64,000 nt of DNA from Tepidisphaeraceae bacterium (GTDB lineage Bacteria; Planctomycetota; Phycisphaerae; Tepidisphaerales; Tepidisphaeraceae): contig DASZME010000083.1 in the NCBI GenBank assembly GCA_035551995.1, positions 61,220-125,219 of the forward strand, given 5' to 3'. Positions 15,971 to 53,456 of this stretch are shown in pieces. Numbering within the stretch: the first letter of the stretch is position 1; each line of letters begins with the position of its first letter. The position numbers were made by a program, and so were the translations under genes. The notes beneath the pieces are model-generated. The model was not told where the DNA came from. It saw nothing but the letters and a program-made list of their open reading frames with translations, and made no database searches.

Positions 15971-16150
15971 ACCTTGCGCGATCATCGGCGTTTTTTTTCA
16001 TACCCTCGCCCGGTACGCCGGGAGAGGGAAGGGTGAGGGTTTCTTGGAAGGGCCGGATTTTATCGTGACTTGCATCTTTCCAAAAAACGCTCTCCGCAAC
16101 CCTCTCGCGGATTACCGGACGAGGGAGCAGAACGCGTAATCGCGCAAGGT
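15971..16150. mobile_element. Family-A MITE-like element, copy A1. It has terminal inverted repeats (ccttgcgcgatYRYcg) and two internal G/C hairpins.
   Basis: The left end is accttgcgcgatcatcggcg+T8. The first hairpin is ccctcgcccgg-tac-gccgggagaggg, followed by gtgagggtttctt. The second hairpin is ccctctcgcgg-attac-cggacgaggg. The right end is cgcgtaatcgcgcaaggt. The same architecture recurs at 51757 (inverted) and 53229. The element starts 4 nt after the nfeD stop. Confidence 0.55.
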
Positions 16151-16293
16151 TAATTGGCGCCGAAAGAGCGGTGAGCGCCCGAACGAAGACGCGCTTGTGC
16201 GCCCTCCGTCATCAACCGTGTTTCTCGACGGCCTGATAGCCGCGGGCGCAAGCCCGATCGCCCGGTATTTTTCGATACAATAAAGGAACTCAC

Positions 16294-17292
16294 ATGCCTG
16301 ATTTCAGCACGATCCTCCTTATCATCGTCGGCGTGGCGATCGTAGTGTTTCTCGCCATCACATTGCCCTTTGCGACCCTGTACGTCCGGGCGGCGGCGAG
16401 CGGGGCGGCCGTCGGACTATCCGATTTGGTGGGCATGCGCCTGCGGAAAGTGAATCCGATCGCCATCGTCACCGCTCGCATTCAGGCGATGCGAGCCGGG
16501 CTTCCGATCACCACGCAGGAGATGGAAACCCACTACCTTGCCGGCGGCAATGTCCAGCGCGTCATCAGCGCGATGATCGCGGCTCACAAGGCAGGCATCG
16601 ATCTCTCATGGCGAACCGCCACCGCGATCGATCTGGCGGGTCGCGATATTCTCGATGCGGTGCAGACGAGCGTGAACCCCAAGGTGATCGACGTCCCCAA
16701 CCCCACCTTTGGCCAGCCGACGATCGACGGCGTCGCCCAGGACGGCATTCAGCTTCGCGTCAAGGCCCGCGTAACGGTTCGCACCGCCATCGCGCGCCTG
16801 GTCGGCGGAGCGACGGAGGAAACGGTCATCGCCCGCGTCGGCGAAGGGATCGTCAACGCCATCGGATCGGCCGAGGATTACAAGCATGTGTTGAAAAATC
16901 CCGACTCGATTTCAAAAACCGTGCTGCACAAAGGTCTCGACGCCAACACGGCGTTCGAGATTCTTTCGATCGACATCGCCGAGATCACCGTCGGCGAAAA
17001 CGTCGGCGCCAAGCTCGCGGCCGATCGCGCCGAGTCGGACAAACGGCGTTTCCAGGCGGAAGCCGAGCAACGCCGCGCGATGGCGGTGGCGCAGGAGCAG
17101 GAAAACGTCGCCAAGCAGGCGGAAAACCGGGCGGCGGTCGTGCTGGCCGAGGCGGAGGTGCCGCGCGCGATCGCCGAGGCGTTTCGCAGCGGAAATCTGG
17201 GCGTGATGGATTACTACAAAATGAAAAACGTGCTGGCCGACACGCAGATGCGCGAAGCGGTCGCCGGCGGCGACGGCGGGACCAAGTCGTAA
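16294..17292 (+). CDS. floA: Flotillin-like protein FloA (YqfA/UPF0365 family, SPFH domain)
   Basis: The protein is near-colinear with the FloA family. It has an N-terminal transmembrane helix ([26 protein letters not shown]). Matching segments include [76 protein letters not shown] and [10 protein letters not shown], with a C-terminal coiled coil. Confidence 0.85.
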
Positions 17293-17374
17293 CCATGGTC
17301 GATTGTCGCGTCGTTGTCCATTCGACGCGCCCGTGAATCCTTCCTGCGGGACCTGGCTCAAAGAAAGTTAGACC

Positions 17375-17917
17375 ATGCGATTTGGATCATGGACCATCCT
17401 CGCCGACGAGAGTATCGGGAAAGTGGTCATCGGCATTCTCGTCTTCGTCGTCTGGGGCATCGGCTCGCTGGCGTCGATGGTAAAAAAAGCCAACGAGCAA
17501 GCCCGGCGTCGCGCGATCGCAAAGCCGAAGGGACCGATCGCCCCGGCCGTCGCGACCGACGACCGCATGACCGTCGGCACATTCGCCGTGACCGGAGCGC
17601 GGCGTCCACCCCCCATGCGGACGTCAATGCTTCAACGATCGCCGGCGGCGGTTCAAAAAAAGCAGCCGGCGAGGCAACCCGCCAGAATCATCGCTCAACC
17701 CGTTCGCCAAGCGGCGCCGAAACCGCAAGCGGGCGCTTCGTCGCGGCCTGTGGTCGAGAAGGTTGCTTCGATCGCCCAGACAAACGCCGCGCAAACCAAT
17801 CTCGCCGGCGCGAAAGCCCCCGCGATACGCCGGTGGCTCGTGCCCGCGACATTGCGGAAACAGTTTATTCTGACGGAGCTCTTGCGTCCGCCGATGGCGC
17901 TGCGGGATGAAGGATGA
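17375..17917 (+). CDS. Hypothetical small membrane-anchored protein with a Pro/Ala/Gln-rich disordered tail, possibly the third gene of the nfeD-floA operon
   Basis: The ATG at 17375 is followed by a transmembrane helix (KVVIGILVFVVWGIGSLASMV), then a basic, low-complexity tail. Codon usage is plausible. The stop abuts the convergent galK stop. No family was recognised. Confidence 0.4.
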   Translation: MRFGSWTILADESIGKVVIGILVFVVWGIGSLASMVKKANEQARRRAIAKPKGPIAPAVATDDRMTVGTFAVTGARRPPPMRTSMLQRSPAAVQKKQPARQPARIIAQPVRQAAPKPQAGASSRPVVEKVASIAQTNAAQTNLAGAKAPAIRRWLVPATLRKQFILTELLRPPMALRDEG

Positions 17918-19102
17918 TTATTCCGAAACAACTCCTGCTCCGCCGGTTGCGGCGGTCACATAGATATCCGGATTTTTCGCGTATTTGCGGCCGAAAACCT
18001 CTTTGATGTGTTGTATCAAACCATCGACCGACCGTGGCTGAGCCAGGGCGACGATGCAGCCGCCGAACCCGCCGCCGGTCATTCGGGCGCCGTAAACGCC
18101 TTTGATTTTCGTCGCCTGCTCGGTCAGAAAATCCAATTCCGGCGTGCTGACTTCGTAATCGTCGCGCAAGGATTCATGACTCTCGACCATCAGGAGCCCG
18201 GCTTCCTCATACCGGCGTTGTTCGAGCTTTGAAGCCGCGTCGACGGTCCGCGCGTTTTCGCCGACGACGTGGCGACAGCGCCGAAAAACCTCGTCGGGAA
18301 GGACGTTTTCCGCGGCGTCGACCTGCGCCATCGTCACGTCCCGCAGCGCGCGGATCGAACGGTCCTGCGTTCGGAAAAACTCGACGCCTTCTTCGCATTG
18401 GGCTTTGCGCTGGGCATATTCGCCGCCGGTCAACTCATGCTTCGTCATGCTGTTGATGATCACCACGCGCAATTCGTTGGCGTCTATCGTGACGTATTTT
18501 TTTTCGAGCGATCGGCAGTCCAGCAGCATCGCGCTGCCGGCTTTAGCCGACGCGACTATCATCTGATCCATAATCCCCACCGGAACGCCGGCGAACGCAT
18601 GCTCGGCCCGCTGGCAGAGCAGCGCCAGACGATCGCCGTCCATCGGCCGGCTCGCCAGGGCGAGCAGCGCCCGGCCGGTGGCGACTTCAACCGCCGCGCT
18701 GCTGGACAATCCGCCGCCGACGGGGAGCGTGTTGGCCAGCAGCGCGTCCATGCCGACCAGCGGGATTCCCGCCGCCAGTAATTCCGCGGCGACGCCTCGG
18801 CTATAGTTGGCCCATTTCGGCTCGCCGCGTTCGATCTTTTTCTGAACGGAAAATTCGACGATCTGGCCGGGGAACGCCGTCGACGCCAGGCGAACCAAGC
18901 CGTCGGTTCGCGCCCGGCAGGCGAGTCGCACTTCAGGCTCGATCGCCATGGGAAAGACAAAACCATCGTTGTAATCGGTGTGTTCGCCGATCAAATTGAC
19001 CCGCCCCGGCGCCCGGATGACCTGCACGTCCGCCACCTCGGCCAGGGCGGCGCCGAACGTCTGTTGAAATTGCTCGCGAAGCTCGGCGTAGACGGTCTGC
19101 AT
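17918..19102 (-). CDS. galK: Galactokinase GalK (GHMP kinase)
   Basis: The galactokinase signature is present (PGRVNLIGEHTDYNDGFVFPMAI). The GHMP ATP-binding motif is present (PVGGGLSSSAAVEVA). The C-terminal motif is GARMTGGGFGGCIVAL. Confidence 0.9.
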   Translation of the reverse strand: MQTVYAELREQFQQTFGAALAEVADVQVIRAPGRVNLIGEHTDYNDGFVFPMAIEPEVRLACRARTDGLVRLASTAFPGQIVEFSVQKKIERGEPKWANYSRGVAAELLAAGIPLVGMDALLANTLPVGGGLSSSAAVEVATGRALLALASRPMDGDRLALLCQRAEHAFAGVPVGIMDQMIVASAKAGSAMLLDCRSLEKKYVTIDANELRVVIINSMTKHELTGGEYAQRKAQCEEGVEFFRTQDRSIRALRDVTMAQVDAAENVLPDEVFRRCRHVVGENARTVDAASKLEQRRYEEAGLLMVESHESLRDDYEVSTPELDFLTEQATKIKGVYGARMTGGGFGGCIVALAQPRSVDGLIQHIKEVFGRKYAKNPDIYVTAATGGAGVVSE

Positions 19103-19158
19103 AACCGCGACTGTAGAGGGACGAGAAGCCGGCGGTCAAGGTGAGAACAAATGGAAAT

Positions 19159-19196
19159 CAATGGATAATGGACAATTGACAATGGATAATGGACAA
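19159..19196. promoter_or_regulatory. Tandem direct repeat (2 x 17 bp, caatggataatggacaa) in the galK/tmk divergent intergenic region; candidate operator site
   Basis: caatggataatggacaa-ttga-caatggataatggacaa. It lies between the divergent starts of galK (19102, minus) and tmk (19297, plus). Confidence 0.45.
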
Positions 19197-19296
19197 CGCT
19201 GAACGAATCGTTCGCCGTTGGTAATGCCATGAGTTCTCGTCTTCGTCTTCACTCACAGCCGGCAAACGACGACTAACGACTTATTCGACGTCCACT

Positions 19297-19932
19297 ATGC
19301 ATTCCTACTTGCGCGGCAAATTCATCGTCCTCGACGGCAACGAAGGTTGCGGCAAGAGCACGCAATCGCAATTGCTCCGCGAGGTGCTGCTCGGCGCCGG
19401 GCTGGATGTCGTGGCCGTGCGCGATCCGGGCGCCACCCGGCTCGGCGAGAAAATTCGCGGCGTGCTGCTCGATCCCGATCACACCGACATGTCCATGCGC
19501 TGCGAAATGCTCCTTTACATGGCCGCCCGCGCACAGATGATGACGGAAATAATCCTGCCCGCCCTGGCGGCGAAAAAAACAGTCGTCTGCGACCGCTTTG
19601 TCTCCAGCACGCTGGCGTATCAACTTGGCGGAGAGGGATTGACCGCCGACGAAATTAGACGGGTCGCCGATGTCGCGATCCAGGGACGGTGGCCCGATCT
19701 GACGATCCTGCTGGACATGCCGCCGGACGCGGGGTTGGCGCGCGTGCGCCGGGCAAGGGACCGGATCGAACAACGGCCGATGGACTATCACGAGCAAGTG
19801 CGGAAGAATTACCTCGCTCAAGCCCAGGCCGACCCGTTGCGGTTTCGGCGTGTGCCGGCCGAACGCAGCCGCGAAGACGTCCACGCCGAGATTATGGATT
19901 GCTTGAAATCGCTCGAGGCGGTATCGGGTTAA
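19297..19932 (+). CDS. tmk: Thymidylate kinase Tmk
   Basis: The P-loop is present (FIVLDGNEGCGKSTQSQLL). The DRY-like motif is present (DRFVSSTLAYQ). A lid region is present. The length is 211 aa. Confidence 0.9.
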   Translation: MHSYLRGKFIVLDGNEGCGKSTQSQLLREVLLGAGLDVVAVRDPGATRLGEKIRGVLLDPDHTDMSMRCEMLLYMAARAQMMTEIILPALAAKKTVVCDRFVSSTLAYQLGGEGLTADEIRRVADVAIQGRWPDLTILLDMPPDAGLARVRRARDRIEQRPMDYHEQVRKNYLAQAQADPLRFRRVPAERSREDVHAEIMDCLKSLEAVSG

Positions 19933-19934
19933 AT

Positions 19935-20117
19935 ATGGATATCATCGATCCCCAAGAGCCGGCGGAGCAATCGCGCGTGGTTGGAGAAGCACATCCCGCG
20001 GCAAGCGATACGCCGAAATGGTTTGGATATATCGCGGTGGGAATTACGCTCGCGTCGACGCTGATCGGCTTGGCGCTGCTGGCGTGGGCGATCCTTTGGC
20101 TCTATCGGCGGTTATAG
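19935..20117 (+). CDS. Hypothetical 60-aa protein with a C-terminal transmembrane helix, between tmk and holB
   Basis: The ATG at 19935 lies 3 nt after the tmk stop. The protein reads MDIIDPQEPAEQSR...WFGYIAVGITLASTLIGLALLAWAILWLYRRL. It fills the tmk-holB gap exactly and ends 4 nt before holB. The ORF is small and no family was recognised. Confidence 0.3.
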   Translation: MDIIDPQEPAEQSRVVGEAHPAASDTPKWFGYIAVGITLASTLIGLALLAWAILWLYRRL

Positions 20118-20121
20118 TTTT

Positions 20122-21150
20122 ATGCCCGGCGTCTTTTTGTTGAGTGACATCTTCGGCCAAACTGACGCCGTCAATTGGCTCCGGCAATCTTACCTTGCCG
20201 ATCGCTTGCCTCACGCGATGGTCTTCGCCGGCCCCGTCGGCGTCGGAAAAGCCGCCACCGCCCGCGCGCTGGCCCGGCTGTTTCTCTGCGAACATCCGAC
20301 AGAGGACCGATCGTGCGGCGTGTGCGATAGCTGCCGGGTGCTGGACGCGGGAAATCATCCGGATTTTCACGTCATCACCAAGGAACTCATTCGCTATCAC
20401 GACAAAACCGGAAAATCCAAGGGAATTTCCCTGTCGATTAACGTCATTCGTCCCGAGGTCATCGAACCCGCGGGGCGCAAGGCGGTCATGGGCCGAGGGA
20501 AGGTTTTTGTGATCGAGCAGGCCGAGTTGATGAATCAGCCGGCGCAAAACGCCCTGCTGAAAACGCTCGAAGAACCGGCCGGCCGGACGCTGATTATCCT
20601 TCTGACCGATCAGCCCACCTCTCTTCTGGCGACCATACGAAGCCGTTGTCAGACGGTGCAATTCGCCACGCTGGACGAGAACCGGGTGAGGAAAGAACTT
20701 GTCGCCCGCGGCATCGACCCGGCGATTGCCGCCGACGCGGCGGCATTGTCGCGCGGATCGCTTGGCATAGCGGTGAAATGGATCGAAGACGACGTGATCG
20801 CGCCCGCTCGCCAGTTGATCGCGATGATTGATCAGCTTTTTTCCGGCCGCCCTCCGGGTGATCTGCCGGCGTGGTTCAAGGCCGCCGCCGATGCGTACGC
20901 GGCCAAGCAGCTCGAGCGCGACGCGCTTTCGAGCAAGGATCAGGCGACCCGCGAGGGCCTGACGCTTTATCTGCTTCTCGCCGGGGAACACATTCGCCGG
21001 CGCATGGCGGAAGGTCCGCCGGAAGATGATTTGGAAGCCGCCTGCTCAGCCATCGACGCCCTCGTGCAGGCGGAGACATTTCTGGATTCGAACGTGAACG
21101 TGTCGCTGATCTTTCAGCAGTTGTCGATGAAACTGGAACGGGCGCATTAG
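20122..21150 (+). CDS. holB: DNA polymerase III delta-prime subunit HolB (AAA+ clamp-loader subunit)
   Basis: The Walker A-like motif is present (HAMVFAGPVGVGKAATARALARLFLCE). A zinc module is present (CGVCDSCRVLDAGNHPDFHVI). The SRC-like motif is present (TIRSRCQTVQF). The tmk-holB linkage is classical. Confidence 0.85.
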   Translation: MPGVFLLSDIFGQTDAVNWLRQSYLADRLPHAMVFAGPVGVGKAATARALARLFLCEHPTEDRSCGVCDSCRVLDAGNHPDFHVITKELIRYHDKTGKSKGISLSINVIRPEVIEPAGRKAVMGRGKVFVIEQAELMNQPAQNALLKTLEEPAGRTLIILLTDQPTSLLATIRSRCQTVQFATLDENRVRKELVARGIDPAIAADAAALSRGSLGIAVKWIEDDVIAPARQLIAMIDQLFSGRPPGDLPAWFKAAADAYAAKQLERDALSSKDQATREGLTLYLLLAGEHIRRRMAEGPPEDDLEAACSAIDALVQAETFLDSNVNVSLIFQQLSMKLERAH

Positions 21151-21201
21151 TGAATTCGACTGGAAGTTGTTCAATTGATGGAAATACCCGGCGACATTTA
21201 G

Positions 21202-22284
21202 TTACAAAACCGAATGTTCCATCGACCGATCTCGCAGAATTTGTGCGATCTTCACATGAGGACGCGGCAGCGGGATATGATCCATTTCATTCAACGTCAT
21301 CCAACGGCGCGAAGGCACGCCGGTGACCGTGGTGGCTTCACGCCAATCGCAAATGAAGACCTCGAATTGATAGCGGCGATGTGTCAGAGTGTGCGAGATC
21401 GACATGACCTTCTCCGGCGTTGTCGTTGATGCAAGAGGCCCAATCGATTTCGTTAGATCGGCTTCCGCCGGAATCGTGATGAACTGCCACATGCCGGCCC
21501 AGCGTCCTGTCGGCGGGCGTTGTTCAATGAGCCAGCGGTCGCCGTGACGGATGCAGTAGGTGCGTCGCAGAAGCAGGGGCGTTTGCTTTGCCGTCCGGGG
21601 CGCGGGAATTTTTTCCTGTAAGCCCGCCGCGAATGCCCGGCAATGTTCACGGACCGGGCAGAGCAAACATTGCGGACTGCGCGGTGTGCATACGGTGGCG
21701 CCGAGTTCCATCAGCGCGGAATTGAAATCGCCAAGCCGTTTATGCGGGAGGATTTCTTCGGCTCGTTTCCAGAGTTGTTCGCGCGTTTTCGGATCGCGCG
21801 GATCGGTTTGGATTAAATCGAGTCGGCAAAGGACGCGCTGGACATTGCCGTCGAGGATCGGCGCGCGCCGGTCGTAGGCGAGGGATGATATCGCCCCGGC
21901 GGTGTATCGGCCGACGCCGGGCAGGGTTTGGAGAATGTCGATCGATCGCGGAAGCTCGCCGCCGTGGTCGCGGAGGATGAGTTTCGCCGCCGCCTGCAGA
22001 TTGCGGGCGCGCGAGTAGTATCCCAGGCCTTGCCACGATCGCAGCACCTGCTGTTCGTCGGCTTGCGCCAACGCGGCAAGTGTCGGAAACTGAAGCAGGA
22101 AGCGATGGAAATAGGGAATGACCGTGGCGACCTGCGTCTGCTGAAGCATCGTTTCGCTGATGAGCACGAGGTACGGATCGGGAAGCGATCGCGAGCCGAT
22201 TTCGACACGCCAGGGCAGCGATCGGCGGGCGCGGTCGTACCAGCGAAGAAGACGTCGCGTAAAGGTTGGATCGGGGGCCGGCAT
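21202..22284 (-). CDS. mutY: A/G-specific adenine DNA glycosylase MutY
   Basis: The HhH-GPD motifs are present (DPYLVLISETMLQQTQVATVIPYFHRF ... LPGVGRYTAGAI). The 4Fe-4S cluster loop is present (CTPRSPQCLLCPVREHC). A C-terminal NUDIX-like domain is present. Confidence 0.9.
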   Translation of the reverse strand: MPAPDPTFTRRLLRWYDRARRSLPWRVEIGSRSLPDPYLVLISETMLQQTQVATVIPYFHRFLLQFPTLAALAQADEQQVLRSWQGLGYYSRARNLQAAAKLILRDHGGELPRSIDILQTLPGVGRYTAGAISSLAYDRRAPILDGNVQRVLCRLDLIQTDPRDPKTREQLWKRAEEILPHKRLGDFNSALMELGATVCTPRSPQCLLCPVREHCRAFAAGLQEKIPAPRTAKQTPLLLRRTYCIRHGDRWLIEQRPPTGRWAGMWQFITIPAEADLTKSIGPLASTTTPEKVMSISHTLTHRRYQFEVFICDWREATTVTGVPSRRWMTLNEMDHIPLPRPHVKIAQILRDRSMEHSVL

Positions 22285-22372
22285 GGTTGAAATCTTATCC
22301 TTGCATGTCGTTTGAAGGTCGTTAAAATAATTGCTCGCATTACAAAACGATTGAAGTTGACATGGAGGTCAA

Positions 22373-22618
22373 TTGGAGAAACTGCATTTCATGGAGGATC
22401 CAATGCGCCGTCCACACGTCGATGATGTCGTGCGTCTCATTCGCGATATACCCGAATTGTCGCTGACGCGCGGCGACCTGGGAATCGTGCGAAGCACGTG
22501 GTTCGCCCCCACGGTCGCTTACGAAGTGGAATTTAACCGGCCTGGCCTTAGCTACCAGACCCGTGCATTGCTGCTGGAAGAGCAGGTTCAGATCGACGCA
22601 AGGCCCGCTCCCGAATGA
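22373..22618 (+). CDS. DUF4926-family small protein
   Basis: The sequence VVRLIRDIPELSLTRGDLGIVRSTWFAPTVAYEVEFNRPG matches the DUF4926 pattern, a hydrophobic beta-hairpin around RGDxGTVV...YEVEF. The start may be the ATG at 22391 (MEDPMRR). Confidence 0.55.
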   Translation: MEKLHFMEDPMRRPHVDDVVRLIRDIPELSLTRGDLGIVRSTWFAPTVAYEVEFNRPGLSYQTRALLLEEQVQIDARPAPE

Positions 22619-22672
22619 ACTGATCGAGCGCGTAAATTTTGAGAGCGACGTTGAGGTCGCCAGAGCGTTCCC

Positions 22673-22742
22673 GCGTTTAGCGGCCGCGCTTGCGGGGCGT
22701 GTGTCGCGATCGAAGTTCGCGCCACCAACATGGAAAATGCGC
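22673..22742. repeat. Family-B REP-like repeat, copy B2 (about 70 bp)
   Basis: The sequence is gcgtttagcggccgcgcttgcggggcgtgtgtcgcgatcgaagttcgcgccaccaacatggaaaatgcgc. It aligns nearly base-for-base with B3 at 24647 and with inverted B4 at 38764. Confidence 0.5.
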
Positions 22743-22991
22743 CCGGGTTCGTAATCGGACGAGCATTCCACTCAGTCGAGTCGGCAAATGCGTCGATAAC
22801 TCATGAGACCGGCGTTTTCGCGCTTGAGAAAATTGCGTTCCTCGTGAACGCAATTCATTAGCCGCGGGCGAAAGTCCCGGTTTTTTCGTGATCGCACAGC
22901 GCCGAACATCTGTCGCTCCGCGGCTGTAATATCATTTGCATCGTCCGTCGCTCCTTGTTTGGGCGTCGTTTTCTGACCTTCCGGCAAACGT

Positions 22992-24302
22992 ATGCACCTT
23001 GGATTGCTCTGCCAAATCCCAACGCGCGTCTTCTCGGCTGACCAAGTCCTGGCCAACTATATTTACGTTTTTTTCACGGCCTTTCTGGTGTCGTTCTTCT
23101 GTACGCCGGCCATGCGTGTCGTGGCGATCCATTTCGGGATGGTCGATCGCCCCGATCTGGTTCGCAAAATACATCGGGCGCCGGTGGCGTATCTGGGCGG
23201 AGTGGCGGTGTTCTTCGCGTGGCTCTGCGGGTTGTTCGTGAGCCAGTTCATGATGCTGCATCGCATCGATCCCGGCTGGCCAGTCGATCGTGGCGTCGCT
23301 CATCCGATTGTACCGTTCAGCATCGTGATGGGAGCGGTCGTCATCGTCACCCTCGGTTTGGTGGACGATGCACGCGGCCTCAAACCCGGCGTGAAAATCT
23401 CCGGGCAGATCCTGGCGGCTATTTTTCTTCTTGGCGACGGCATCGGCATCGACGCCACCCGCCCGCTGCTTCAAGCCTTCAGCGGCCATGTAACCCACTT
23501 CGTCGGCTACGCTGGAAACCCGAGTTTGCTGAGTCCCGACTGGCTGGTATACGTCACCAGCGGGTTGGTGGTGATCGCCATCGTGGTCGGATGCTGCAAC
23601 GCGTCCAACCTCATGGACGGTCTTGACGGACTTTGCGGCGGAGTGACCGCCATTATCGCCCTGGGATTTTTGATCGTCGCCACCCAATTGGCCATGGTCG
23701 GCGGCGGTATCAACACCAATCGCGACGCCATTCGCGTGATAATGGCGCTGGCGCTTCTCGGCGCCGTTCTCGGATTTATCCCGTATAACTTCAATCCCGC
23801 CAGCATCTTTATGGGCGATACCGGAAGCATGTTTCTAGGGTTCGCCTGTGCCGCGATGATGATCGAAATGTCCCACGAGCATTCCAAATGGTTCCTGGCG
23901 TCGATGGTGATGTTCGCGTTGCCGATTCTAGATACGTCGCTAGCGTTCGCGCGCCGATATCTTAACGGACGGCCCCTGTTCAGCGCCGATCGGCAACATA
24001 TTCACCACCAGCTACTGGCCCGCGGGCTAACGATCAATCAAGCCGTGCTGGCGAGCTATGCGCTGGCCATCGTTTTTGGCGTGCTCGGAACATCCATGCT
24101 GTTTATGCGGACGCGCTATGCCATCGCGTTATATCTGGTGATCTTCGGTTACCTGATCGTGATGGCCTATAAGATCGGCATGGTTCACGAACGCGTTCAG
24201 AAGTCCGACGCATCGAGCATAAAAGACCAGTCGGCCGAGTCGTTCAGGCCCGACATTCGCCCGGCGACCACGCTGGAAGTCGGCGCACTGAAATTGAACT
24301 GA
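22992..24302 (+). CDS. Polyprenyl-phosphate sugar-1-phosphate transferase of the MraY/WecA family (GT4 phospho-N-acetylhexosamine transferase)
   Basis: The protein is polytopic. Family motifs are present: NASNLMDGLDGLCGG and IFMGDTGSMFLGF. The cytoplasmic loop reads ILDTSLAFARRYLNGRPLFSADRQHIHHQL. Whether it is a wecA or an mraY paralogue cannot be decided from sequence alone. Confidence 0.8.
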   Translation: MHLGLLCQIPTRVFSADQVLANYIYVFFTAFLVSFFCTPAMRVVAIHFGMVDRPDLVRKIHRAPVAYLGGVAVFFAWLCGLFVSQFMMLHRIDPGWPVDRGVAHPIVPFSIVMGAVVIVTLGLVDDARGLKPGVKISGQILAAIFLLGDGIGIDATRPLLQAFSGHVTHFVGYAGNPSLLSPDWLVYVTSGLVVIAIVVGCCNASNLMDGLDGLCGGVTAIIALGFLIVATQLAMVGGGINTNRDAIRVIMALALLGAVLGFIPYNFNPASIFMGDTGSMFLGFACAAMMIEMSHEHSKWFLASMVMFALPILDTSLAFARRYLNGRPLFSADRQHIHHQLLARGLTINQAVLASYALAIVFGVLGTSMLFMRTRYAIALYLVIFGYLIVMAYKIGMVHERVQKSDASSIKDQSAESFRPDIRPATTLEVGALKLN

Positions 24303-24646
24303 AGAACGGATATCCCCAGCGCGGCCTCCGACCGCAACCAAGGGCCCGAACCACGGATTACACGGATTGACATGGATGGGAAAGAAAGTTCGTCCTTTTC
24401 ACCATGAAATTCACTGCAATCCGAGGGCACTGTTCCAAGGCCTGAAAAAATCTTGTCGCCACACAAGGAAATGAGCGGATTGTATTACGAAGGGCACGAA
24501 GAAGAGGTGATTTTGAAAAAGCGCGTCTCTTGATGTATCCTGTCGTTCTTCCATTCTTTCAAGGACGTAACCTCTTGCGACTGCCAAATGGGCAATAATT
24601 GTGGTGGGCTCATCGAACGTTCTTCGGGTTGCCGGAGCGTTTGTGC

Positions 24647-24714
24647 GTTTAGCGGCCCCGCTTGCGGGGCGTCTTTCGCGACCCAAGTTCGCGACGCCCA
24701 CATGAAAAATACGT
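24647..24714. repeat. Family-B REP-like repeat, copy B3
   Basis: The sequence is gcgtttgtgcgtttagcggccccgcttgcggggcgtctttcgcgacccaagttcgcgacgcccacatgaaaaatacg. It has the same orientation as B2, so the wecA-like gene is flanked by direct copies. Confidence 0.5.
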
Positions 24715-33218: not shown

Positions 33219-33251
33219 TGAATCAATACGAGCCGCGAACCGCCAATTTTT

Positions 33252-38742: not shown

Positions 38743-38763
38743 GCGCCGGACGGCCGAGACCTA

Positions 38764-38843
38764 GAGCGTTTCTCATGCTGGTGAAGCGACCTTGCGTCGC
38801 GAAAAACGCCCCGCAAGCGGGGCCGCTAAACACAGAAACGCGC
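38764..38843. repeat. Family-B REP-like repeat, copy B4 (inverted orientation)
   Basis: The reverse complement reads gcgtttctgtgtttagcggccccgcttgcggggcgtttttcgcgacgcaaggtcgcttcaccagcatgagaaacgc. It matches B2 and B3 including the distal CAtg[ar]aaa motif. Confidence 0.45.
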
Positions 38844-38949
38844 GAGCAACCTGACAACCGCTCTAATAAAAACGATTCACCTGTGGATTAGGTAGCGATG
38901 CTCGCCGCGTGACTATTTTTATGACCCGCCACGTCTTAGAATTGCGACG

Positions 38950-44726: not shown

Positions 44727-44852
44727 CGGCGAAGATCCGATCATTTTATTCCGTTCCAGTCGCGTTGCCGTTGGGATCAACACGTTTTTGTCGTGGCGAA
44801 CTTCGTTTGCCGCGTGCGGCCCCTTCGCGTTTGTTCCGGGCTCGCGTGTTTT

Positions 44853-47081: not shown

Positions 47082-47123
47082 GCTTCGTCTCTCTCTGTTG
47101 TAGACGGCGATGTCCGCCGGGGC

Positions 47124-48293
47124 TTAGGCCGGCCGCATGGAATTCCGATACACGTGCTCCAGGGCCTCGACCATTACACTCGCGTCAAATCGGGCCAGGG
47201 CGAACGCGCGGCCGGTTTCCCCCATCCGGCTCCGCAGGGCCGGATCGCCCAATAATACTTCAAGCGCCGCCGAAAGTCCGGCGCCGTCGAACGGCCGAAT
47301 CGCGAATCCGCTCTGGCCGTCCAAAAGCCCTTCACGATTGCCGTCGATGTCAAAGGCGATCACCGGGCATCCCGCCAGCGCCCCTTGCGGCAACGCCCGC
47401 GCCAAGCCTTCCCGCCGGGACGGATGAACCAGGATATCCATCGCGTTCGTCAACTCCGGCACCCGCGACGGCGAAACCAGTCCCGTGAGGATAAACCGAT
47501 CCTTCAAACTCATGCGCGCGATCTCTCGCTCAAAATCAGCCCGAAGCGATCCGTCGCCGACCCAGAGAAATCGCAGGTTTGGATACTTCCGGCATAACCC
47601 CGGCGCCGCCGCGAGCAGATCGGCATGCCCCTTGAGATCGAATAGTCGAGCGATCGTCCCCACCGCCACATGCTCATCGGCAAGGCCAAGACCGCGGCGA
47701 ACTTCGGCGCGGCAAATCGGCGGATCGAGAAACGGCGCCGTCTTCATCCCGCTGTAAACGGTCACATATTGATCCGTCCGCCCCACGTTTTGCGCAAGCG
47801 ACCGCTCAGCCATGGCGTCGGCGACGCAGACGATTTTCGTGGTGATCGGCGCCGTGAATTTCTCGGCCAGCCGATACACGTCGTTGACGATTTTTCGCGT
47901 CGACGCCGTGAACGCCAATCCATGAATCGTATGAACGATCACCGGCACGCCCGCCTGATATGCCGCCCATCGGCCGATGATGCCCGCCTTGCTGCTGTGG
48001 GTATGAACGACGTGGGGCTTGATCTGTCGCAGGCGGCGGATGAGCCATCGGTACGTCCGCCAATCCTGCGTGGGCAAAACGCTCCGACGCATGGCGTCGA
48101 TCGTCTCGACGCGATACCCATAAGACGCCGCTCGCTCCATCAACGACCCCTCGGGCCCCAGCGCCGGGCCGGCGATCAGCGTGACGTCGTGGCCGCGATC
48201 GTGCTGGCCTTCGCAGGAAAGCAGCGTATTTTCCTGCGCGCCGCCGACGATCAGACGGGTGATGACGTGGACGATTGTCATAGCGAAAGTCAT
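47124..48293 (-). CDS. Glycosyltransferase family 4 (GT-B fold)
   Basis: The N-terminus reads IVHVITRLIVGGAQENTLL. The C-terminal EX7E-type region reads HPSRREGLARALPQGALAGCPVIAFDIDGNREGL. Confidence 0.8.
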   Translation of the reverse strand: MTFAMTIVHVITRLIVGGAQENTLLSCEGQHDRGHDVTLIAGPALGPEGSLMERAASYGYRVETIDAMRRSVLPTQDWRTYRWLIRRLRQIKPHVVHTHSSKAGIIGRWAAYQAGVPVIVHTIHGLAFTASTRKIVNDVYRLAEKFTAPITTKIVCVADAMAERSLAQNVGRTDQYVTVYSGMKTAPFLDPPICRAEVRRGLGLADEHVAVGTIARLFDLKGHADLLAAAPGLCRKYPNLRFLWVGDGSLRADFEREIARMSLKDRFILTGLVSPSRVPELTNAMDILVHPSRREGLARALPQGALAGCPVIAFDIDGNREGLLDGQSGFAIRPFDGAGLSAALEVLLGDPALRSRMGETGRAFALARFDASVMVEALEHVYRNSMRPA

Positions 48294-48345
48294 TGTCCCC
48301 GGCGGGGCTGCGGCGCCGGATCGTCTCGATTCGCCAAAGGCCGCT

Positions 48346-49959
48346 TCAGTCGAACAATCTCGGCTGCCTGGGATCGTCGGCGATGGATTCGATCTGTCCG
48401 TCGGCCAGGCGCGTTTGCAATCGGTCGCCCGGTTTAACTTGTTCGACGCTTCGGATAAGCGACCCGTCTTTTTTGCGGAAGGTCATGCTGTAGCCGCGCT
48501 GCAATACGTTGCTGGGATTGAGGGCCTGGAGTTGGCGCTCAAGGGCGTCGAGGCGCCGGCGCCGTTCCAGAAAACCGGACTGCGCCGCTCGATTGAATCG
48601 ATCGATCGACGCCTTGAGCCGCTGGCTTTGCAGGCGGACGCCGAACTTCGGATGGCAATCGCCCAAGCGGCTTGCGGCGCGGTTGACCCGGTCGTTCGCC
48701 TGACGAACGCGCCGGCTCAGGGCCAGCAGGAGATTGCGCTGTAACGTGGCAAGCCGATCGCCCAGACGATTGATCGCCGCGGGCATCTGACGATCGAGCC
48801 GGCCGTGAATTTCCTGCACGCGCCATTGCGTCTGATGCAGGCGATGGACGACGGCGGTCGTCATCGTGCGCTGCCGGTCGTCAAGAACTTGCCGAAGCGA
48901 ATTGATCCGCTCCATCGGCCGGCGGAAAACTTCGTGGCGTTCGATATTCTTGAGGCGCTCGCGGCATTCGGTCAACCGTTTTGAAAAGCCGCGGCCAAGC
49001 CGCAGCGCCGTCACGTCAAGCTCGTCGCGCACATCGCGCCAATGTCCCGACACGATTTGGGCGGCTTCGGTCGGCGTATGCGCGTGATAATCGGCCGCGA
49101 GGTCGGCGATCGTCACATCCACCTCATGGCCGATCCCCGTGATCACCGCCACGCGGCTGGCCGCGATCGCGCGGGCGACCGGCTCTTCGTTGAACGCCCA
49201 TAGGTCTTCCAGCGATCCGCCGCCGCGCGCCAGCAGAATGATGTCGGCCGATATCTCGTGCGCGCAACGGCTGACGTGCGCAATGGCAGCCGCGATTCGC
49301 CCCGCCGCCGCGTCCCCCTGAACCGGAACCGGGTAAACCATGAGCCGCAGCCACGCATACCGGCGGAGGACTTTCAAGATGTCCTGCAGCGCCGCGGTGC
49401 TCGTTCCCGTCACCAGCACGATCGTCATCGGATATCGCGGCAGCGGTTTTTTTCGCTCGGCCGCGAACAGCCCCTCGGCTTCAAGTTTCGCTCGAAGTTG
49501 CCCAAAGGCCAACTCCAGCGACCCCTTGCCCAGCGGCCGCAGGGTTGTGACATACAGTTGATAGCGCCCCTGCTTGCCGAAGACCGCGACCTTTCCGGTT
49601 GCAATCAGTTCCAGGCCGTCGGTCGGAACGAATTTCAAACGAGCCGCGTCGCTCTTCCACATCACGCAGTCGATGCAGGTAGCGGCATCTTTCAGCGTGA
49701 AGTATACATGCCCCGACGAGTGGTTTGGCCGATAGTTGCTGATCTCGCCGCGGACGTAAACAGTGTCCGGCACGCCTGCCCTGACGGCTCGATCGATTCG
49801 ATTGGTCAGTTCCGAAACGGTGATGGCATCGATTGACGTCTGCTTGCTCGCGCCGGGCGGCCCGGGCGATCCCGTCGCGGGAAGTTCACGGGGCCGAATT
49901 TCCGCGCGGGGTTTGCGCGTGGCCTGCTCGCGAAACTCGAAGAATCCTCCATGAGACAT
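48346..49959 (-). CDS. xseA: Exodeoxyribonuclease VII large subunit XseA
   Basis: The OB fold is present (VYVRGEISNYRPNHSSGHVYFTLKDAATCIDCVMWKS). The catalytic core is present (ARGGGSLEDLWAFNEE ... ITGIGHEVDVTIADL). The C-terminal coiled coil is present. Confidence 0.85.
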   Translation of the reverse strand: MSHGGFFEFREQATRKPRAEIRPRELPATGSPGPPGASKQTSIDAITVSELTNRIDRAVRAGVPDTVYVRGEISNYRPNHSSGHVYFTLKDAATCIDCVMWKSDAARLKFVPTDGLELIATGKVAVFGKQGRYQLYVTTLRPLGKGSLELAFGQLRAKLEAEGLFAAERKKPLPRYPMTIVLVTGTSTAALQDILKVLRRYAWLRLMVYPVPVQGDAAAGRIAAAIAHVSRCAHEISADIILLARGGGSLEDLWAFNEEPVARAIAASRVAVITGIGHEVDVTIADLAADYHAHTPTEAAQIVSGHWRDVRDELDVTALRLGRGFSKRLTECRERLKNIERHEVFRRPMERINSLRQVLDDRQRTMTTAVVHRLHQTQWRVQEIHGRLDRQMPAAINRLGDRLATLQRNLLLALSRRVRQANDRVNRAASRLGDCHPKFGVRLQSQRLKASIDRFNRAAQSGFLERRRRLDALERQLQALNPSNVLQRGYSMTFRKKDGSLIRSVEQVKPGDRLQTRLADGQIESIADDPRQPRLFD

Positions 49960-50147
49960 CAGTACAAGTATACGCGATGAGGGGCGCTCCTGCTTCCTTT
50001 AGCCGCCGTGATGACACTGCCGGGACCTGAACGGACACGGCCTCTTTTCCCTCGCGGCGATCGTCGCTCCAACGATCGGCCTTGCCGTGGCGTATTTACA
50101 AATGCGTCGCAGCATTTCGCCAGCGGTTTTCACGGAAAGGTCGTGCG

Positions 50148-51713
50148 ATGAACTCCTTCGTCCATCGTGCAGGACATGATACGGCGATTGGCCGTCTGAT
50201 CGTCGCAACGCTTGTTCTGTCGGCGATGACCGCCGCGCTGCATGCACGCGATCATTGCGCGCCGGGCGCCTGCGCGGCGGCCGATGCCGCTGAACCTCCC
50301 GCGGGGCCGTCGGGGAATCTTCATCCGATCCCCTCGGCGGATGCTCTAGCCGGGGCGCTTCAGGGGCTGAAGGAAATTTTCAAACCCTATCCTCCCGCCA
50401 AGGCGGAAGACAAAATCAAGGTCGCCGAAAAACTGATTTCCGACAACGAAAAGAGTCCCGGCGATCTCAATTCACAATATGTGCTCTTGCACGAGGCCGC
50501 GGAATTGTTCGCCGCCGCCGGTGACCTTCCGGCGGCGCTCAAAGCCGTGGACGATCTGGCCGGCGTTTTCGCGATCGACGTCGCCCAGGAGAAACTGTCC
50601 ATCCTCAAGCGGGCGAAAGTCGGCCGTCTTTCCCCATCCGCGGCGTCTGCATATGCCGACGCGACGCTGACGCTGGGATGGGGCGCGATGCGCCGGGGTG
50701 ATTTTGAAAGCGCCAACCGGGCGGTTTCTTTGGCGGCGGGCGCGGTGCACGAGGCGCAAGATCCAAAATTGACGTCGGCCGCCCAGGCGCTGACAGCCGA
50801 AGCCCACAGGGCGCTTGGCGAAGCGGGACAAGCAAGAGCCGCCGAAGAAAAGCTCAAAACTCAGCCAAACGATCCGTCGGCCAATCTCGGCGCCGGCCGG
50901 TTCCTCTGTTTTTATCGCGGCGATTGGACGCGGGGTTTGCCGATGTTGGCCAAAGGCTCGGACCCGACGCTCAAGGCGCTAGCGGAAAGCGACTTGGCGC
51001 CTCCGACCGACGCCGACGCGCAACTTGCGCTGGGCCAAAAATGGGGCGAATTGGCCGGCCGGGACACGACCTTTGCCCGCGCTCAACTTCGCCAACGTGC
51101 GACGTACTGGTATGCGTTGGCCGAAGCGGGACTCGGCGGACTCAAAAAGGTCCTGGCCCAGCGCCGCATCGCCGATCTCAATAGATCCGACGCATCCGAT
51201 CCCGCCTCTTTCACCTCGCGGGAACTGACACTTGCGAAGTTGCTTAATGATCCTTCGCACTGGATCGTCAAAAACGGGAAATGGGACAACGCCACCGGCC
51301 GCTTCCACGGCGAAGGCGACGCCGAGATCGACCTGGATACGCCGTTGCCGCCGGACATTGTTTTTAGTTTTCATATCAACGTCATCAGTGGCTCGCGTCC
51401 GCGAATGCATTTCGAGGGGACGGGAATGACTTTCGCCAACGAAGGGCGTGGGAGAAATCTGTATCCGCACGGCACGAAAGCGCCCGAGCCGCATTTTATG
51501 TATGAGAACAATCAGCCCCATGCGCTGAAATTCAAATTGGCCGCGAATCATTTTGAGATCGCCATCGACGGCAACACCGCGTTTACGGGAACGTATAAGG
51601 CCGCCAAGTCCATCCACCTGAGGCTGCGCGCCGGCGATAGCTGGAGCCGAGGAACGACTGAATTTTGGGGATTCGAGGTGGAGTCGCTGCCGAACGGAAT
51701 GGGCGGGAAGTAG
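50148..51713 (+). CDS. Hypothetical secreted protein with an N-terminal helical/TPR-like region and a C-terminal beta-sandwich-like domain
   Basis: The ATG at 50148 gives a signal peptide (MNSFVHRAGHDTAIGRLIVATLVLSAMTAALHA). The C-terminal segment WIVKNGKWDNATGRFHGEGDAEIDL...HFEIAIDGNTAFTG resembles LamG/3-keto-disaccharide-hydrolase-type beta-sandwich domains. Confidence 0.5.
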   Translation: MNSFVHRAGHDTAIGRLIVATLVLSAMTAALHARDHCAPGACAAADAAEPPAGPSGNLHPIPSADALAGALQGLKEIFKPYPPAKAEDKIKVAEKLISDNEKSPGDLNSQYVLLHEAAELFAAAGDLPAALKAVDDLAGVFAIDVAQEKLSILKRAKVGRLSPSAASAYADATLTLGWGAMRRGDFESANRAVSLAAGAVHEAQDPKLTSAAQALTAEAHRALGEAGQARAAEEKLKTQPNDPSANLGAGRFLCFYRGDWTRGLPMLAKGSDPTLKALAESDLAPPTDADAQLALGQKWGELAGRDTTFARAQLRQRATYWYALAEAGLGGLKKVLAQRRIADLNRSDASDPASFTSRELTLAKLLNDPSHWIVKNGKWDNATGRFHGEGDAEIDLDTPLPPDIVFSFHINVISGSRPRMHFEGTGMTFANEGRGRNLYPHGTKAPEPHFMYENNQPHALKFKLAANHFEIAIDGNTAFTGTYKAAKSIHLRLRAGDSWSRGTTEFWGFEVESLPNGMGGK

Positions 51714-51756
51714 CCTGGGCGATTCTCTTGCATGCGCTGGTCTGGATATGAATGAA

Positions 51757-51935
51757 CTTGCGCGATTACGCGCTCTACTCCCTCGCCCGGTAATCCGGGA
51801 GAGAGGGTTGGGGTGAGGGTTTTTTGAAATGATGCGAGCCGTATAAAATGCGCGAGCTATCAAAGAAACCCTCACCCTGTTCTCTCCCGGAGTGCCGGGT
51901 GAGGGTTTAAGAGAAACGCGCGTGATCGCGCAAGG
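51757..51935. mobile_element. Family-A MITE-like element, copy A2 (inverted relative to A1 and A3)
   Basis: The left end is cttgcgcgattacgcgc. The first hairpin is ctccctcgcccgg-taat-ccgggagagagg. A gtgagggtttttt...aaaccctcaccc internal palindrome follows. The second hairpin is tctcccgg-agtg-ccgggtgaggg. The right end is gcgcgtgatcgcgcaagg. Its reverse complement aligns with the A3 right half. Confidence 0.55.
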
Positions 51936-51984
51936 TTATTTTAGATTAAATGTCGATCGTCTGTCTATTAAAGGAGAAGTAAGC

Positions 51985-52971
51985 GTGCGAATTCCGGCTC
52001 TACTTGCAGTCGTGGCTCTCTGTTCGATCCATTCCGTTTTGGCCGCGGGCGCGGCGGATCAATCACAGGCGATCAAAATCGTCCAGGCCGATACGCATCT
52101 CGACGTCACCATCGGCGGCAAGCCGTTCACGTCCTACTGGTTCGGCAAACGAGATGACCGGCTCTATGTCCGTCCATTTTTCTTCCCCGTCCTCGCGCCC
52201 GGCGACGTGGCGGTGACCAGCGATCAATATTCGCTGAAGGAACGCGAACCCAAGACCGACCACCCGCATCATCAATCGCTGTGGGTGGCGCAGGGGGACG
52301 TGAATGGCGTCGATCACTGGTCGCTCGGGAAAGACGGCAAAGGAACCCTGTCGGCCAAGCAACGGCATGTTAAATTCGCCTCGGTCGGCGAGGATCGTTT
52401 CGCCGAAAATCTCTTGTGGGACGACAACGCCGGGAAACCGATGCTCGATGAAGTGCGAACGGTGAAGTTCGTCGGGTATCCCGATGGAAGCCGCGGCATC
52501 GATATTACGTCGGCCTTCACGCCGGCGGAGGGGTCGGTGACGTTTGGAGATACAAAGGAGGCTGGTTTGATGGCGGTTCGATTGGCGACCGCGATCGCCA
52601 AACATCCGACGATTACACAGTCCAGCGGAAAAGGCGGGGAAGGCGCCGCCGGCGAAAAGCAGACCTGGGGCCAGCCGGCCGACTGGTGTGATGAATCGGG
52701 CGAGATCGACGGCAAGCCGTTTGGCGTGGCGATTTTCGATTTCCCGGCCAACCCGCGTCATCCGGCCCGCTGGCATGTGCGAGCCTATGGATTGATGTCA
52801 TCCAACATTTTTGGCTTGAGCGATTTCGATAAGAAAAATCCGAAGCATTCGGGGGATCTGGTGATCGAGAAAGGGACGACGGTTACGTTTCGCCATCGAG
52901 CGGTGATCCATGCGGGGATGGCCGTGGATGCGAAACTGGGAGAGAAGTATAAGGAATTTGCCGGTGAGTAG
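51985..52971 (+). CDS. PmoA-family (DUF6807) exported protein
   Basis: The GTG at 51985 gives a signal peptide (VRIPALLAVVALCSIHSVLAAGA). The segment YVRPFFFPVLAPGDVAVTSDQYSLKEREPKTDHPHHQSLW is typical of the misnamed methane-oxygenase PmoA family common in Planctomycetota. The earlier part of the track ORF lies inside MITE A2. Confidence 0.5.
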   Translation: MRIPALLAVVALCSIHSVLAAGAADQSQAIKIVQADTHLDVTIGGKPFTSYWFGKRDDRLYVRPFFFPVLAPGDVAVTSDQYSLKEREPKTDHPHHQSLWVAQGDVNGVDHWSLGKDGKGTLSAKQRHVKFASVGEDRFAENLLWDDNAGKPMLDEVRTVKFVGYPDGSRGIDITSAFTPAEGSVTFGDTKEAGLMAVRLATAIAKHPTITQSSGKGGEGAAGEKQTWGQPADWCDESGEIDGKPFGVAIFDFPANPRHPARWHVRAYGLMSSNIFGLSDFDKKNPKHSGDLVIEKGTTVTFRHRAVIHAGMAVDAKLGEKYKEFAGE

Positions 52972-53139
52972 ATGAGGACGTAAGACTATGCGACGCCGCG
53001 GGATTCTGTGCATGGCTATCAGGCAGATGTCGCGGTCGATTGGATAGTCGCGGGGCGGAAGCGCGGTTGCGTTTGATTTCAGTTGAGTCTACCAATAACA
53101 CTACTGTTCTCATCAGAAGGATTTCTGTTGTTGATGGAG

Positions 53140-53200
53140 CGAGGCTTCAGCGCGAGAAGCGCCTCACAAGCGGGGCCGCTATTATAGACGCAGGAACGCC
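53140..53200. repeat. Degenerate family-B repeat, copy B5 (inverted), adjacent to MITE A3
   Basis: The reverse complement contains tagcggccccgcttgtgaggcgcttctcgcg, which is the B core with several substitutions. Confidence 0.3.
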
Positions 53201-53228
53201 ACGGCTATCTGGAATAGGCTCTAAAATG

Positions 53229-53456
53229 ACCTTGCGCGATCACGCGCGTTTTTTTTCATACCCTCGCCCGGTACTCCGGGAGAGGGAAGGGTGAGGGTTT
53301 CTTCGACGTGCCGGATTTTCGCTGACTTGCGCCTTTTCAAAAAGCCTTCTCCCCAACCCTCTCCCGGAATACCGGGCGAGGGAGTAGAGCGCGTAGTCAC
53401 GCAAGGCTCTCCCGGATTACCGGGCGAGGGAGAAGAGCGCGTAGTCGCGCAAGGCT
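53229..53456. mobile_element. Family-A MITE-like element, copy A3, with a tandem duplication of its approximately 48-bp right-end module
   Basis: The left end is accttgcgcgatcacgcgcg+T8, which is terminator-like: the stem gcgcg-atca-cgcgc is followed by a U-tract. The first hairpin is ccctcgcccgg-tac-tccgggagaggg, followed by gtgagggtttctt. The right module ctcccgga(at)taccgggcgagggag(t/a)agagcgcgtagtc(a/g)cgcaaggct occurs twice in tandem. The element ends 3 nt before the trkH stop. Confidence 0.55.

Follow-up and report, generated by a model that had tools for sequence, protein, structure and literature searches.

To our knowledge, almost all that is known of small palindromic repeats in bacteria comes from Proteobacteria, Firmicutes and Rickettsia. 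Among the described systems, the Correia elements of Neisseria (NEMIS) sit beside genes and can alter mRNA processing. The REP sequences of Proteobacteria form inverted doublets, the REPINs, whose definition we take from PMC3337134 and PMC3116915. Among Planctomycetes, R. baltica is reported to have REPs and many tyrosine transposases (PMC3733652), and in-frame insertion in proteins is the hallmark of the Rickettsia palindromic elements (RPEs; PMC10969869). Here we analyse a stretch of 64 kb (contig DASZME010000083.1, positions 61,220 to 125,219; hereafter the window, with a GC content of ~60%) from a Tepidisphaeraceae bacterium, a member of the Planctomycetota, which carries three copies, A1, A2 and A3, of one non-coding palindromic repeat of ~190 bp, all of them intergenic. 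We propose that this repeat is probably a two-tiered, lineage-specific compound, non-autonomous and best likened to REPIN/BIME-type selfish DNA.

Results

Three copies of a compound palindromic repeat

Reading and alignment found the three copies where a first-pass annotation had placed a dispersed, intergenic family with terminal inverted repeats and twin hairpins, and these features were present in all three (Table 1). The copies are 190-240 bp long, contain only short, incidental open reading frames (ORFs), and are 81-86% identical in pairwise comparisons over ~185 nt, spacer included. Within the window, matches to the hairpin pattern and to the terminal-repeat pattern were confined to the three copy sites; shuffles of the window gave a chance expectation of 0.00 and 1.5 matches, respectively. 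That the whole element folds as one long hairpin, as also annotated, was borne out for each copy: the folding energies were −95.8 (A1), −98.9 (A2) and −136 kcal/mol (A3), with z = −7.3, −12.0 and −9.6, and none of 200 shuffles folded as well.

The element consists, in order, of the outer terminal repeat CCTTGCGCGAYYAYGCGC, a T-rich linker, the core hairpin CCCTCGCCCGG-N4-CCGGGAGAGGG and the tail AAGGGTGAGGGTTTCTT. After a spacer of ~45 nt, tail and hairpin recur in mirrored form, the hairpin as CCCTCTCCCGG-N4-CCGGGCGAGGG, and the linker AGNAGA joins them to a mirrored copy of the terminal repeat. Both core loops measure 4 nt, rather than the 3 and 5 nt first proposed, and the 11-bp stem includes one conserved G.A mismatch. 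The T-rich linker is T8 in A1 and A3 and TTTCTCTT in A2. A small, GC-rich outer hairpin, CCTTGCGCG-AYYA-CGCGC, lies at both ends, with the T8 run after it on one side only. The terminal inverted repeat CCTTGCGCGAYYAYGCGC, which bounds each of the three copies on either side with 0-2 mismatches, is 18 nt long and extendable to ~26 nt as TAAAWTRRCCTTGCGCGAYYAYGCGC, and the palindrome reaches outward to TAAAWTRR on one side and to YYATTTA on the other. Its outermost bases coincide with TAA stop codons, that of nfeD at 15965-15967 and that of the trkH-like gene at 53459-53461. The first-pass annotation had A1 sit 4 nt after nfeD and A3 3 nt after trkH. The two stops lie inside TAAAGAACC (A1, left end) and TAAATAGCC (A3, right end, − strand); trkH of the closest relative encodes the same final residues (LVG), but its stop is TGA.

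A3 is longer than A1 and A2 because a 48-nt unit of its right end, comprising a core hairpin and a terminal repeat, is tandemly duplicated. A1 is the most decayed copy, with two mismatches in its left outer hairpin and two mismatches to the pattern in its right core hairpin. The spacer, which forms the loop of the long hairpin, is the least conserved part among the window copies.

The core hairpin recurs in related genomes and the outer module does not

An nhmmer profile of the three window copies matched other genomes only over model positions ~36-166, that is, over the two hairpins, their tails and the spacer. In this core, an imperfect hairpin of 26 nt, CCCTCGCCCGG-N4-CCGGGAGAGGG, with a GGGTGAGGG tail, occurs twice in inverted orientation. 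A scan with the exact hairpin pattern, in a collection with one genome per species, returned at least 118 stretches, and the core hairpin thus occurs in at least 118 loci from at least ~41 assemblies (species-level genomes); from base composition we estimate that ~4 or fewer of these matches would arise by chance. Among the matches listed, nearly all of the core-bearing assemblies bear the label Tepidisphaeraceae, Tepidisphaerales, Phycisphaerales or Phycisphaerae; Gemmatales or Planctomycetaceae is given for a few, and four have other labels. These other labels are Gammaproteobacteria, Bacillota, Steroidobacteraceae and Kapaibacterium, and the contigs concerned are L006, L008, L049, L088, L093 and L108 (VFKP01), L009, L038, L056 and others (JBLNDH01), L054, and L086 and L105. 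Such bins may be mislabelled or contaminated, or the core may occur outside Planctomycetota. Together, the window and the related loci hold 150 units, of which 42 are doublets and 108 are single hairpins.

In ~0.9 Mb of core-bearing related loci the outer terminal repeat was absent, and the outer module with T8 on one side was found in this organism only. Because the core family exists elsewhere without it, the terminal repeat is an added outer module and not the defining end of the family, and the window element is a lineage-specific compound of a shared core and a private outer module. Spacers vary freely between genomes, yet A1, A2 and A3 have theirs in common; therefore, the whole ~190-bp unit is the unit of copying in this genome. 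Three near-identical long doublets, with a spacer of ~143 nt, lie within 2 kb in a metagenome-assembled genome (MAG) of Planctomyces sp. (L090). They have conserved flanks of their own, so that here another lineage has independently built its specific compound on the same core.

Plasmid and phage collections gave no BLAST matches to the element, and 2.9 million viral contigs held one core hairpin only. Spread by plasmids or phages is thus unlikely. In the single matching viral contig (L125 ~3095-3150; IMG/VR, sample 3300036827) the core hairpin is followed by GAAAGAGCGCGCAAG, which resembles the window right end (GAGAAGAGCGCGTAGTCGCGCAAGG) minus 8 nt. This arrangement may hint at how the outer module arose.

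Pairing within the core hairpin is conserved

Pairing was assessed in 65 distinct hairpin sequences. Stem positions were paired in 88-97% of cases, and all 18 double changes in the stem kept the pair; stem position 6 is the conserved G.A mismatch in the commonest form of the hairpin. In 42 distinct doublets, the variable positions kept the local hairpin over long-range pairing 13 times and did the reverse three times, and in 12 cases all four bases changed together. Because local pairing was preferred in this way and double changes were compensatory, the 26-nt local hairpin is the constrained unit, as would be the case if the site were recognised in hairpin form, either as single-stranded DNA or as RNA.

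Very stable folds and conserved local hairpins would also suit a set of small structured RNA genes, in which each copy expresses a functional hairpin RNA. This seems to us very improbable, as the element is almost perfectly palindromic and lies in either orientation, it has no promoter-like site beyond chance, and the spacer that would form the loop is its least conserved part. Moreover, Rfam gave no window match at gathering score, in line with the first-pass annotation, which had recognised no named element. At permissive E-values there were only sub-threshold matches to eukaryotic miRNA-precursor models, which reflect the long hairpin, and a known RNA family was accordingly rejected. Two further candidates were ruled out: an integron attC site, by eye, since there are no GTTRRRY / RYYYAAC end boxes and no integrase among the called genes, and a CRISPR array, since the spacing of the repeats is irregular.

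Core units are found in frame within conserved genes

Six-frame translation of the element against a protein collection disclosed in-frame insertions, and no called ORFs from further compound copies. A check at the DNA level confirmed a core doublet in frame within the ArgRS gene of a Tepidisphaerales MAG (P0138) and within a TsaD gene (P0130); insertions in MnmE, RecO and others were seen at the level of the protein sequence. In ArgRS P0138, 45 residues (494-538) separate aligned blocks that are separated by 12 residues (478-489) in E. coli ArgRS, and the doublet is missing from all 11 aligned orthologues as well as from the E. coli protein. ArgRS P0176 has a single hairpin unit in the same loop region, and in ArgRS P0250 the single unit, of 11 aa, occupies another loop. 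Presence and absence in ArgRS and TsaD follow the pattern expected of independent insertions. Long open frames span about a quarter of the units in the loci, which is an upper bound because GC-rich DNA holds many spurious ORFs.

In ArgRS, units are thus seen at two different loops in three lineages. The peptide encoded by the insertions, ...PSPGTPGEG...PSPQPSPGVPGEG..., is missing from orthologues. The core twin hairpin or a single unit also lies in frame in proteins P0122, P0124, P0132 and P0143 of other Phycisphaerae.

Insertion sites and the search for a mobilising enzyme

Inside both A2 and A3, a short-read contig from this organism breaks off, and the break points have no 31-mer in common with the other copies in the window, which hints at more copies elsewhere. 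In the flanks of 43 core doublets outside the window, the longest direct repeat had a mean length of 3.16 nt, against 3.23 ± 0.13 nt in controls; the target-site duplication looked for is therefore at the level of chance. The flanks of these doublets have a short palindromic extension, CTTKYY / RRMAAG.

Several observations weigh against a REPIN/BIME-like element. No mobilising enzyme was identified in the window or in 839 kb of hairpin-bearing loci, which are a partial sample of the genomes concerned. The flanks of the core have neither GTAG nor CGTC as a consistent tag; among the four right ends in the window, GTAG lies between core and outer hairpin in only two. Two metagenome scans for compound ends (terminal repeat plus hairpin, and hairpin plus linker) gave 0 matches each, and since the first of these patterns matches the window itself, the scanned collection evidently lacked the contig of the window. 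The closest relatives available, with 83% and 75% identity in the DUF6807 protein, have no copies at the corresponding loci and are too diverged to provide exact empty sites. At 81-86% identity the copies are old, and recent activity is not shown. Finally, the TA that can be read by eye just outside both ends of each window copy, 1-7 nt from the repeat, may point to a DDE transposase acting on the compound copies.

[quoted passage not shown] IS630/Tc1-like, with a transposase that acts on the 18-26-nt terminal repeats and internal hairpins that are passengers. IS630/Tc1-like elements duplicate TA. The terminal inverted repeats are real (18 nt, or ~26 nt when extended), and a length below 500 bp, the lack of coding capacity and intergenic, A/T-rich insertion points agree with the structural criteria for prokaryotic MITEs reviewed in PMC10969869. 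However, the distance from TA to the repeat varies from end to end, so that TA may occur by chance in A/T-rich flanks. No IS or transposase lies within the window, and a parent IS or transposon with the same ends was found neither in the window nor in the two metagenome scans, plasmids or phages. Nor is the internal doublet a passenger, as it forms a repeat family of its own that occurs without the terminal repeats and without target duplication. Small size, terminal repeats and absence of coding capacity thus remain of the MITE label, whereas no parent IS was found in the sequences searched and a target duplication would come down to a possible TA flank; we consider a classical MITE unlikely.

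The statement that the window has no transposase was upheld: genes called over window positions 6.3-64 kb have no transposase domain, and window ORFs include no homologue of the Y1 transposase. The 521-aa gene upstream of A2 was considered as a transposase and rejected, having no Pfam, NCBIfam or PDB support; its sole NCBIfam match (PilW/TPR-like) is far below threshold. The 839 kb of hairpin-bearing loci contain two Y1_Tnp ORFs, which are 2-3 kb from hairpins and not flanked by them, and all-against-all clustering of the ORFs from 118 such loci revealed no recurrent transposase-like family. One of the two Y1_Tnp ORFs, in L078 from a member of the Gemmatales (weak Pfam match, E = 0.0013), lies between GTAG-type inverted repeats of its own (TGATGGTAGTCATCACGCTCCGCGTGATGGT); the ORF and its repeats are a candidate REP-RAYT unit, unrelated to the hairpin under study.

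A terminator-like module is intact in A3

In A3 the small outer hairpin has a stem of 5-6 pairs (−8.6 kcal/mol) followed by U8, and it was called terminator-like. Its T-run site (TTTTTTTT after the stem) faces the 3' end of the DUF6807 gene; no other terminator-like site directed at a gene's 3' end is intact. In A1 the left hairpin is broken by two mismatches, and its local fold (−5 to −6 kcal/mol) is no better than that of shuffles; a terminator-like end had been annotated in A1 and A3 alike, and while T8 is there in both, the hairpin is intact in A3 only. The corresponding site of A2 was called terminator-like on the − strand only, where its T-run is degenerate and no gene reads into it. In the other direction, the conserved flank TCTAAAAT reads AUUUUAGA right after the long hairpin on the opposite strand, so that a two-way effect on transcripts is conceivable from the sequence. 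Termination itself would hold weakly, and for A3 alone.

Could the element be a cassette selected by the host, i.e., a terminator and/or a 3' hairpin that stabilises mRNA, or a place where a nucleoid protein binds, kept at gene ends for its use? Each of the three copies directly follows the 3' end of one gene or more, and stop codons adjoin two of the ends. In addition to the A3 hairpin with U8 at the DUF6807 gene and the AUUUUAGA reading of the flank TCTAAAAT, the end of A2 that faces no incoming gene is the one whose T-run has decayed to TTTCTCTT, compensatory changes conserve the hairpin structure, and terminator-like repeat families are known, e.g. SPRITE. Yet the A3 stem is just 5 bp, the module is broken in A1, and the A1 hairpins are decaying. 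The neighbours of A1, nfeD and floA, also point the same way and are linked in function, and a terminator is not obviously useful between them; together with the decay of the A1 core hairpin, this argues against strong selection for termination. Furthermore, the closest relative has no element at the same intergenic site, the core family is also found inside coding regions, where termination would be harmful, and usefulness leaves the dispersal of the copies unexplained. A host-selected cassette is, in our view, quite improbable.

Gene neighbourhood and other repeats

Coordinates are collected in Table 1. In reverse complement, the window corresponds to the first 64 kb of a 136.7-kb contig of JGI metagenome 3300036800, and its DUF6807 protein is 100% identical to a protein of an NCBI MAG of a Tepidisphaeraceae bacterium. 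The genes flanking the copies agree with those annotated earlier, with NfeD and FloA around A1 and, around A3, DUF6807 and a weak match to the TrkH family. The 521-aa gene and A2 are located between the gene for the large subunit of exonuclease VII and the DUF6807 gene. Because the latter two are direct neighbours in the two closest relatives, the stretch with the 521-aa gene and A2 looks like a lineage-specific insertion. In the 83% relative, the DUF6807/trkH intergenic site that holds A3 in the window is occupied by a different palindrome of ~100 nt, TTGGTTAGCCGCGACGCGCAGCG...CGCTGCGCGTTGCGGCTAACCAA (L121 ~7000-7100). Therefore, one intergenic site holds different palindromic repeats in different lineages.

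The window has a second family of dispersed repeats, with the core TTAGCGGCCSCGCTTGCGGGGCG and a CCCCGC-TT-GCGGGG hairpin; its copies are at most 115 nt long and 72-83% alike, and one of them is ~40 nt upstream of A3. The region 82-7089 (+) belongs to a gene that runs past the window start, with a called product of 9252 aa, and has internal repeats with a period of ~400 nt.

Table 1. Positions of the repeat copies, their modules, neighbouring genes and related features. Coordinates refer to the window or to the locus named.
Feature	Sequence	Coordinates	Strand	Remarks
A1, whole compound element	Window	15965-16155	+	TAAAGAACCTTGCGCG ... CGCGCAAGGTTAATT; between nfeD and floA
A1, left outer module	Window	15972-15998	+	Terminal repeat CCTTGCGCGATCATCGGC, G, T8 (15991-15998); not called terminator-like
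A1, core hairpin 1	Window	16003-16028	+	CCCTCGCCCGG-TACG-CCGGGAGAGGG; tail AAGGGTGAGGGTTTCTT at 16029-16045
A1, core hairpin 2	Window	16100-16125	+	Inverted, decayed; CCCTCTCGCGG-ATTA-CCGGACGAGGG
A1, right terminal repeat	Window	16132-16149	−	ACGCGTAATCGCGCAAGG on + strand; 1 mismatch
A2, whole compound element	Window	51750-51946	−	Inverted; between 521-aa gene and DUF6807 gene
A2, terminal repeat, end without T-run	Window	51756-51773	+	ACTTGCGCGATTACGCGC; core hairpin next at 51780-51807
A2, other end	Window	51882-51935	−	Core hairpin 51882-51905, degenerate T-run, terminal repeat 51918-51935
A2, degenerate T-run	Window			AAGAGAAA on + strand, TTTCTCTT on − strand
A3, whole compound element	Window	53222-53461	+	Between DUF6807 gene and trkH-like gene; right end overlaps trkH-like stop
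A3, left outer module	Window	53230-53256	+	CCTTGCGCGATCACGCGC, G, T8 (53249-53256)
A3, core hairpin 1	Window	53261-53286	+	CCCTCGCCCGG-TACT-CCGGGAGAGGG
A3, core hairpin 2	Window	53357-53382	+	CCCTCTCCCGG-AATA-CCGGGCGAGGG
A3, tandem duplication	Window	53359-53456	+	48-nt unit (core hairpin, AGNAGA, terminal repeat); 2.0 copies, 94% identical
A3, right terminal repeats	Window	53389-53406 and 53437-53454		Pattern matches
nfeD	Window	14438-15967	+	Upstream of A1
floA	Window	16294-17292	+	Downstream of A1
521-aa gene of unknown function	Window	50148-51713	+	Upstream of A2
DUF6807 gene	Window	51985-52971	+	Between A2 and A3
trkH-like gene	Window	53459-54793	−	Next to A3; TrkH-family match weak
Second repeat family, copies	Window	8265-8302, 22637-22751, 24615-24713	+	
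Second repeat family, copies	Window	38755-38869, 53122-53181	−	
ArgRS P0138 doublet	L123	4474-4600		
TsaD P0130 doublet	L124	~3385-3500		
Long doublets, Planctomyces sp. MAG	L090	2313-2507, 3613-3807, 4204-4397		Own conserved flanks GCCATTGG..GGCC / TAATTTCTGGCTTC
GTAG-containing repeats	L078	1551-1581, 2288-2318, 2400-2430		

Discussion

The best-supported view is that the element is mainly selfish, with at most a weak side effect as a terminator or through RNA structure. Its inner tier, the hairpin doublet, would behave as miniature mobile DNA of the REP/REPIN type, and the core would have spread via a hairpin-recognising enzyme supplied in trans. Since the ends are hairpin-defined and no target duplication was seen, this enzyme would most likely be an HUH/Y1 (RAYT- or TIRYT-like) transposase with single-stranded DNA as its substrate and a gene located elsewhere in the genome. 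It would be chiefly as selfish DNA that the copies are retained in the A/T-rich gaps where genes end, with which the decay of A1 is consistent. For the host, the side effects would presumably be those of a very stable hairpin in a 3' untranslated region, which could block exonucleases or be cut by RNase III; where the orientation is favourable, as in A3, the small hairpin and U8 could add weak intrinsic termination.

A bolder reading, which we put forward tentatively and hold to be less likely than not, is that of an undescribed system. In it, a 26-nt hairpin would serve as the recognition unit, descend vertically across Planctomycetota, insert as single units or doublets without target duplication, be tolerated in frame in essential proteins of free-living bacteria, and repeatedly give rise to lineage-specific compounds; here it might have been fused with a terminator-like hairpin into a cassette that ends transcripts in two directions (small hairpin and U8 in one, long hairpin and AUUUUA in the other). 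Full-text literature searches, directed at the peptides that the repeat encodes and at repeats in Tepidisphaera, Phycisphaerae or Planctomycetes, turned up no description of this family.

Bacterial genomes are shaped by small palindromic repeats, which also interrupt assemblies, as the contig ends in A2 and A3 show, and seed spurious or altered proteins. The same design of imperfect hairpins, inverted doublets and mosaic compounds is now seen in soil Planctomycetota, with a core common to dozens of species, and the three window copies are ordinary members of such a family, and their own role as terminators is weak at best. For the annotation of MAGs, PSPGTPGEG...PSPQPSPGVPGEG peptides in ArgRS, TsaD, MnmE and other proteins are repeat-derived insertions and not features of the protein. 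Should the mobilising enzyme be found, it would establish a REPIN-like or RPE-like system in a phylum with none characterised.

How does the element compare with known repeats? With the Correia elements (NEMIS) and pneumococcal SPRITE it shares a size of ~100-200 bp, terminal inverted repeats of ~26 nt and transcripts that fold into long hairpins, and SPRITE is likewise a repeat family that resembles a rho-independent terminator. There is, however, no sequence relation to either, and the terminator-like module here is weak and intact in one of three copies. Moreover, TA duplication is typical of Correia elements, whereas the TA at variable distance from the ends of the three window copies may or may not be one. 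As in RPEs, members of the core family are inserted in frame in surface loops of conserved essential proteins; unlike RPEs, the three window copies are intergenic, and the element is GC-rich, 60-230 nt long and found in free-living soil Planctomycetota; a relation in sequence to RPEs would not be expected.

The likeness to REPs and REPINs lies in the short imperfect palindrome that forms the unit (here 26 nt with one conserved mismatch), in the inverted doublets that fold with their spacer into a larger hairpin, in the coexistence of single units with doublets (108 and 42, respectively, in the sampled loci), and in the absence of target-site duplication. The distribution is also similar, with many related species and a core essentially absent from plasmids and phages. 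The differences are that no RAYT gene flanked by core hairpins was found in the window or in the 839 kb of loci, that the core has no consistent GTAG/CGTC tag, that the host is a planctomycete and core units also occur within genes, and that the window copies have an additional outer tier of hairpins and the T8 run. With the BIMEs of E. coli the element has no sequence relation, and the mosaic in the window was copied as a single ~190-bp unit. It resembles them in being a mosaic of different small palindromes with defined linkers and alternating orientation, in having one module amplified in tandem (in A3, the duplicated 48-nt unit), and in its position at the 3' ends of genes. An architecture of inverted imperfect doublets, mosaic modules and tandem amplification of an end thus fits REPINs and BIMEs at least as well as it fits a classical MITE.

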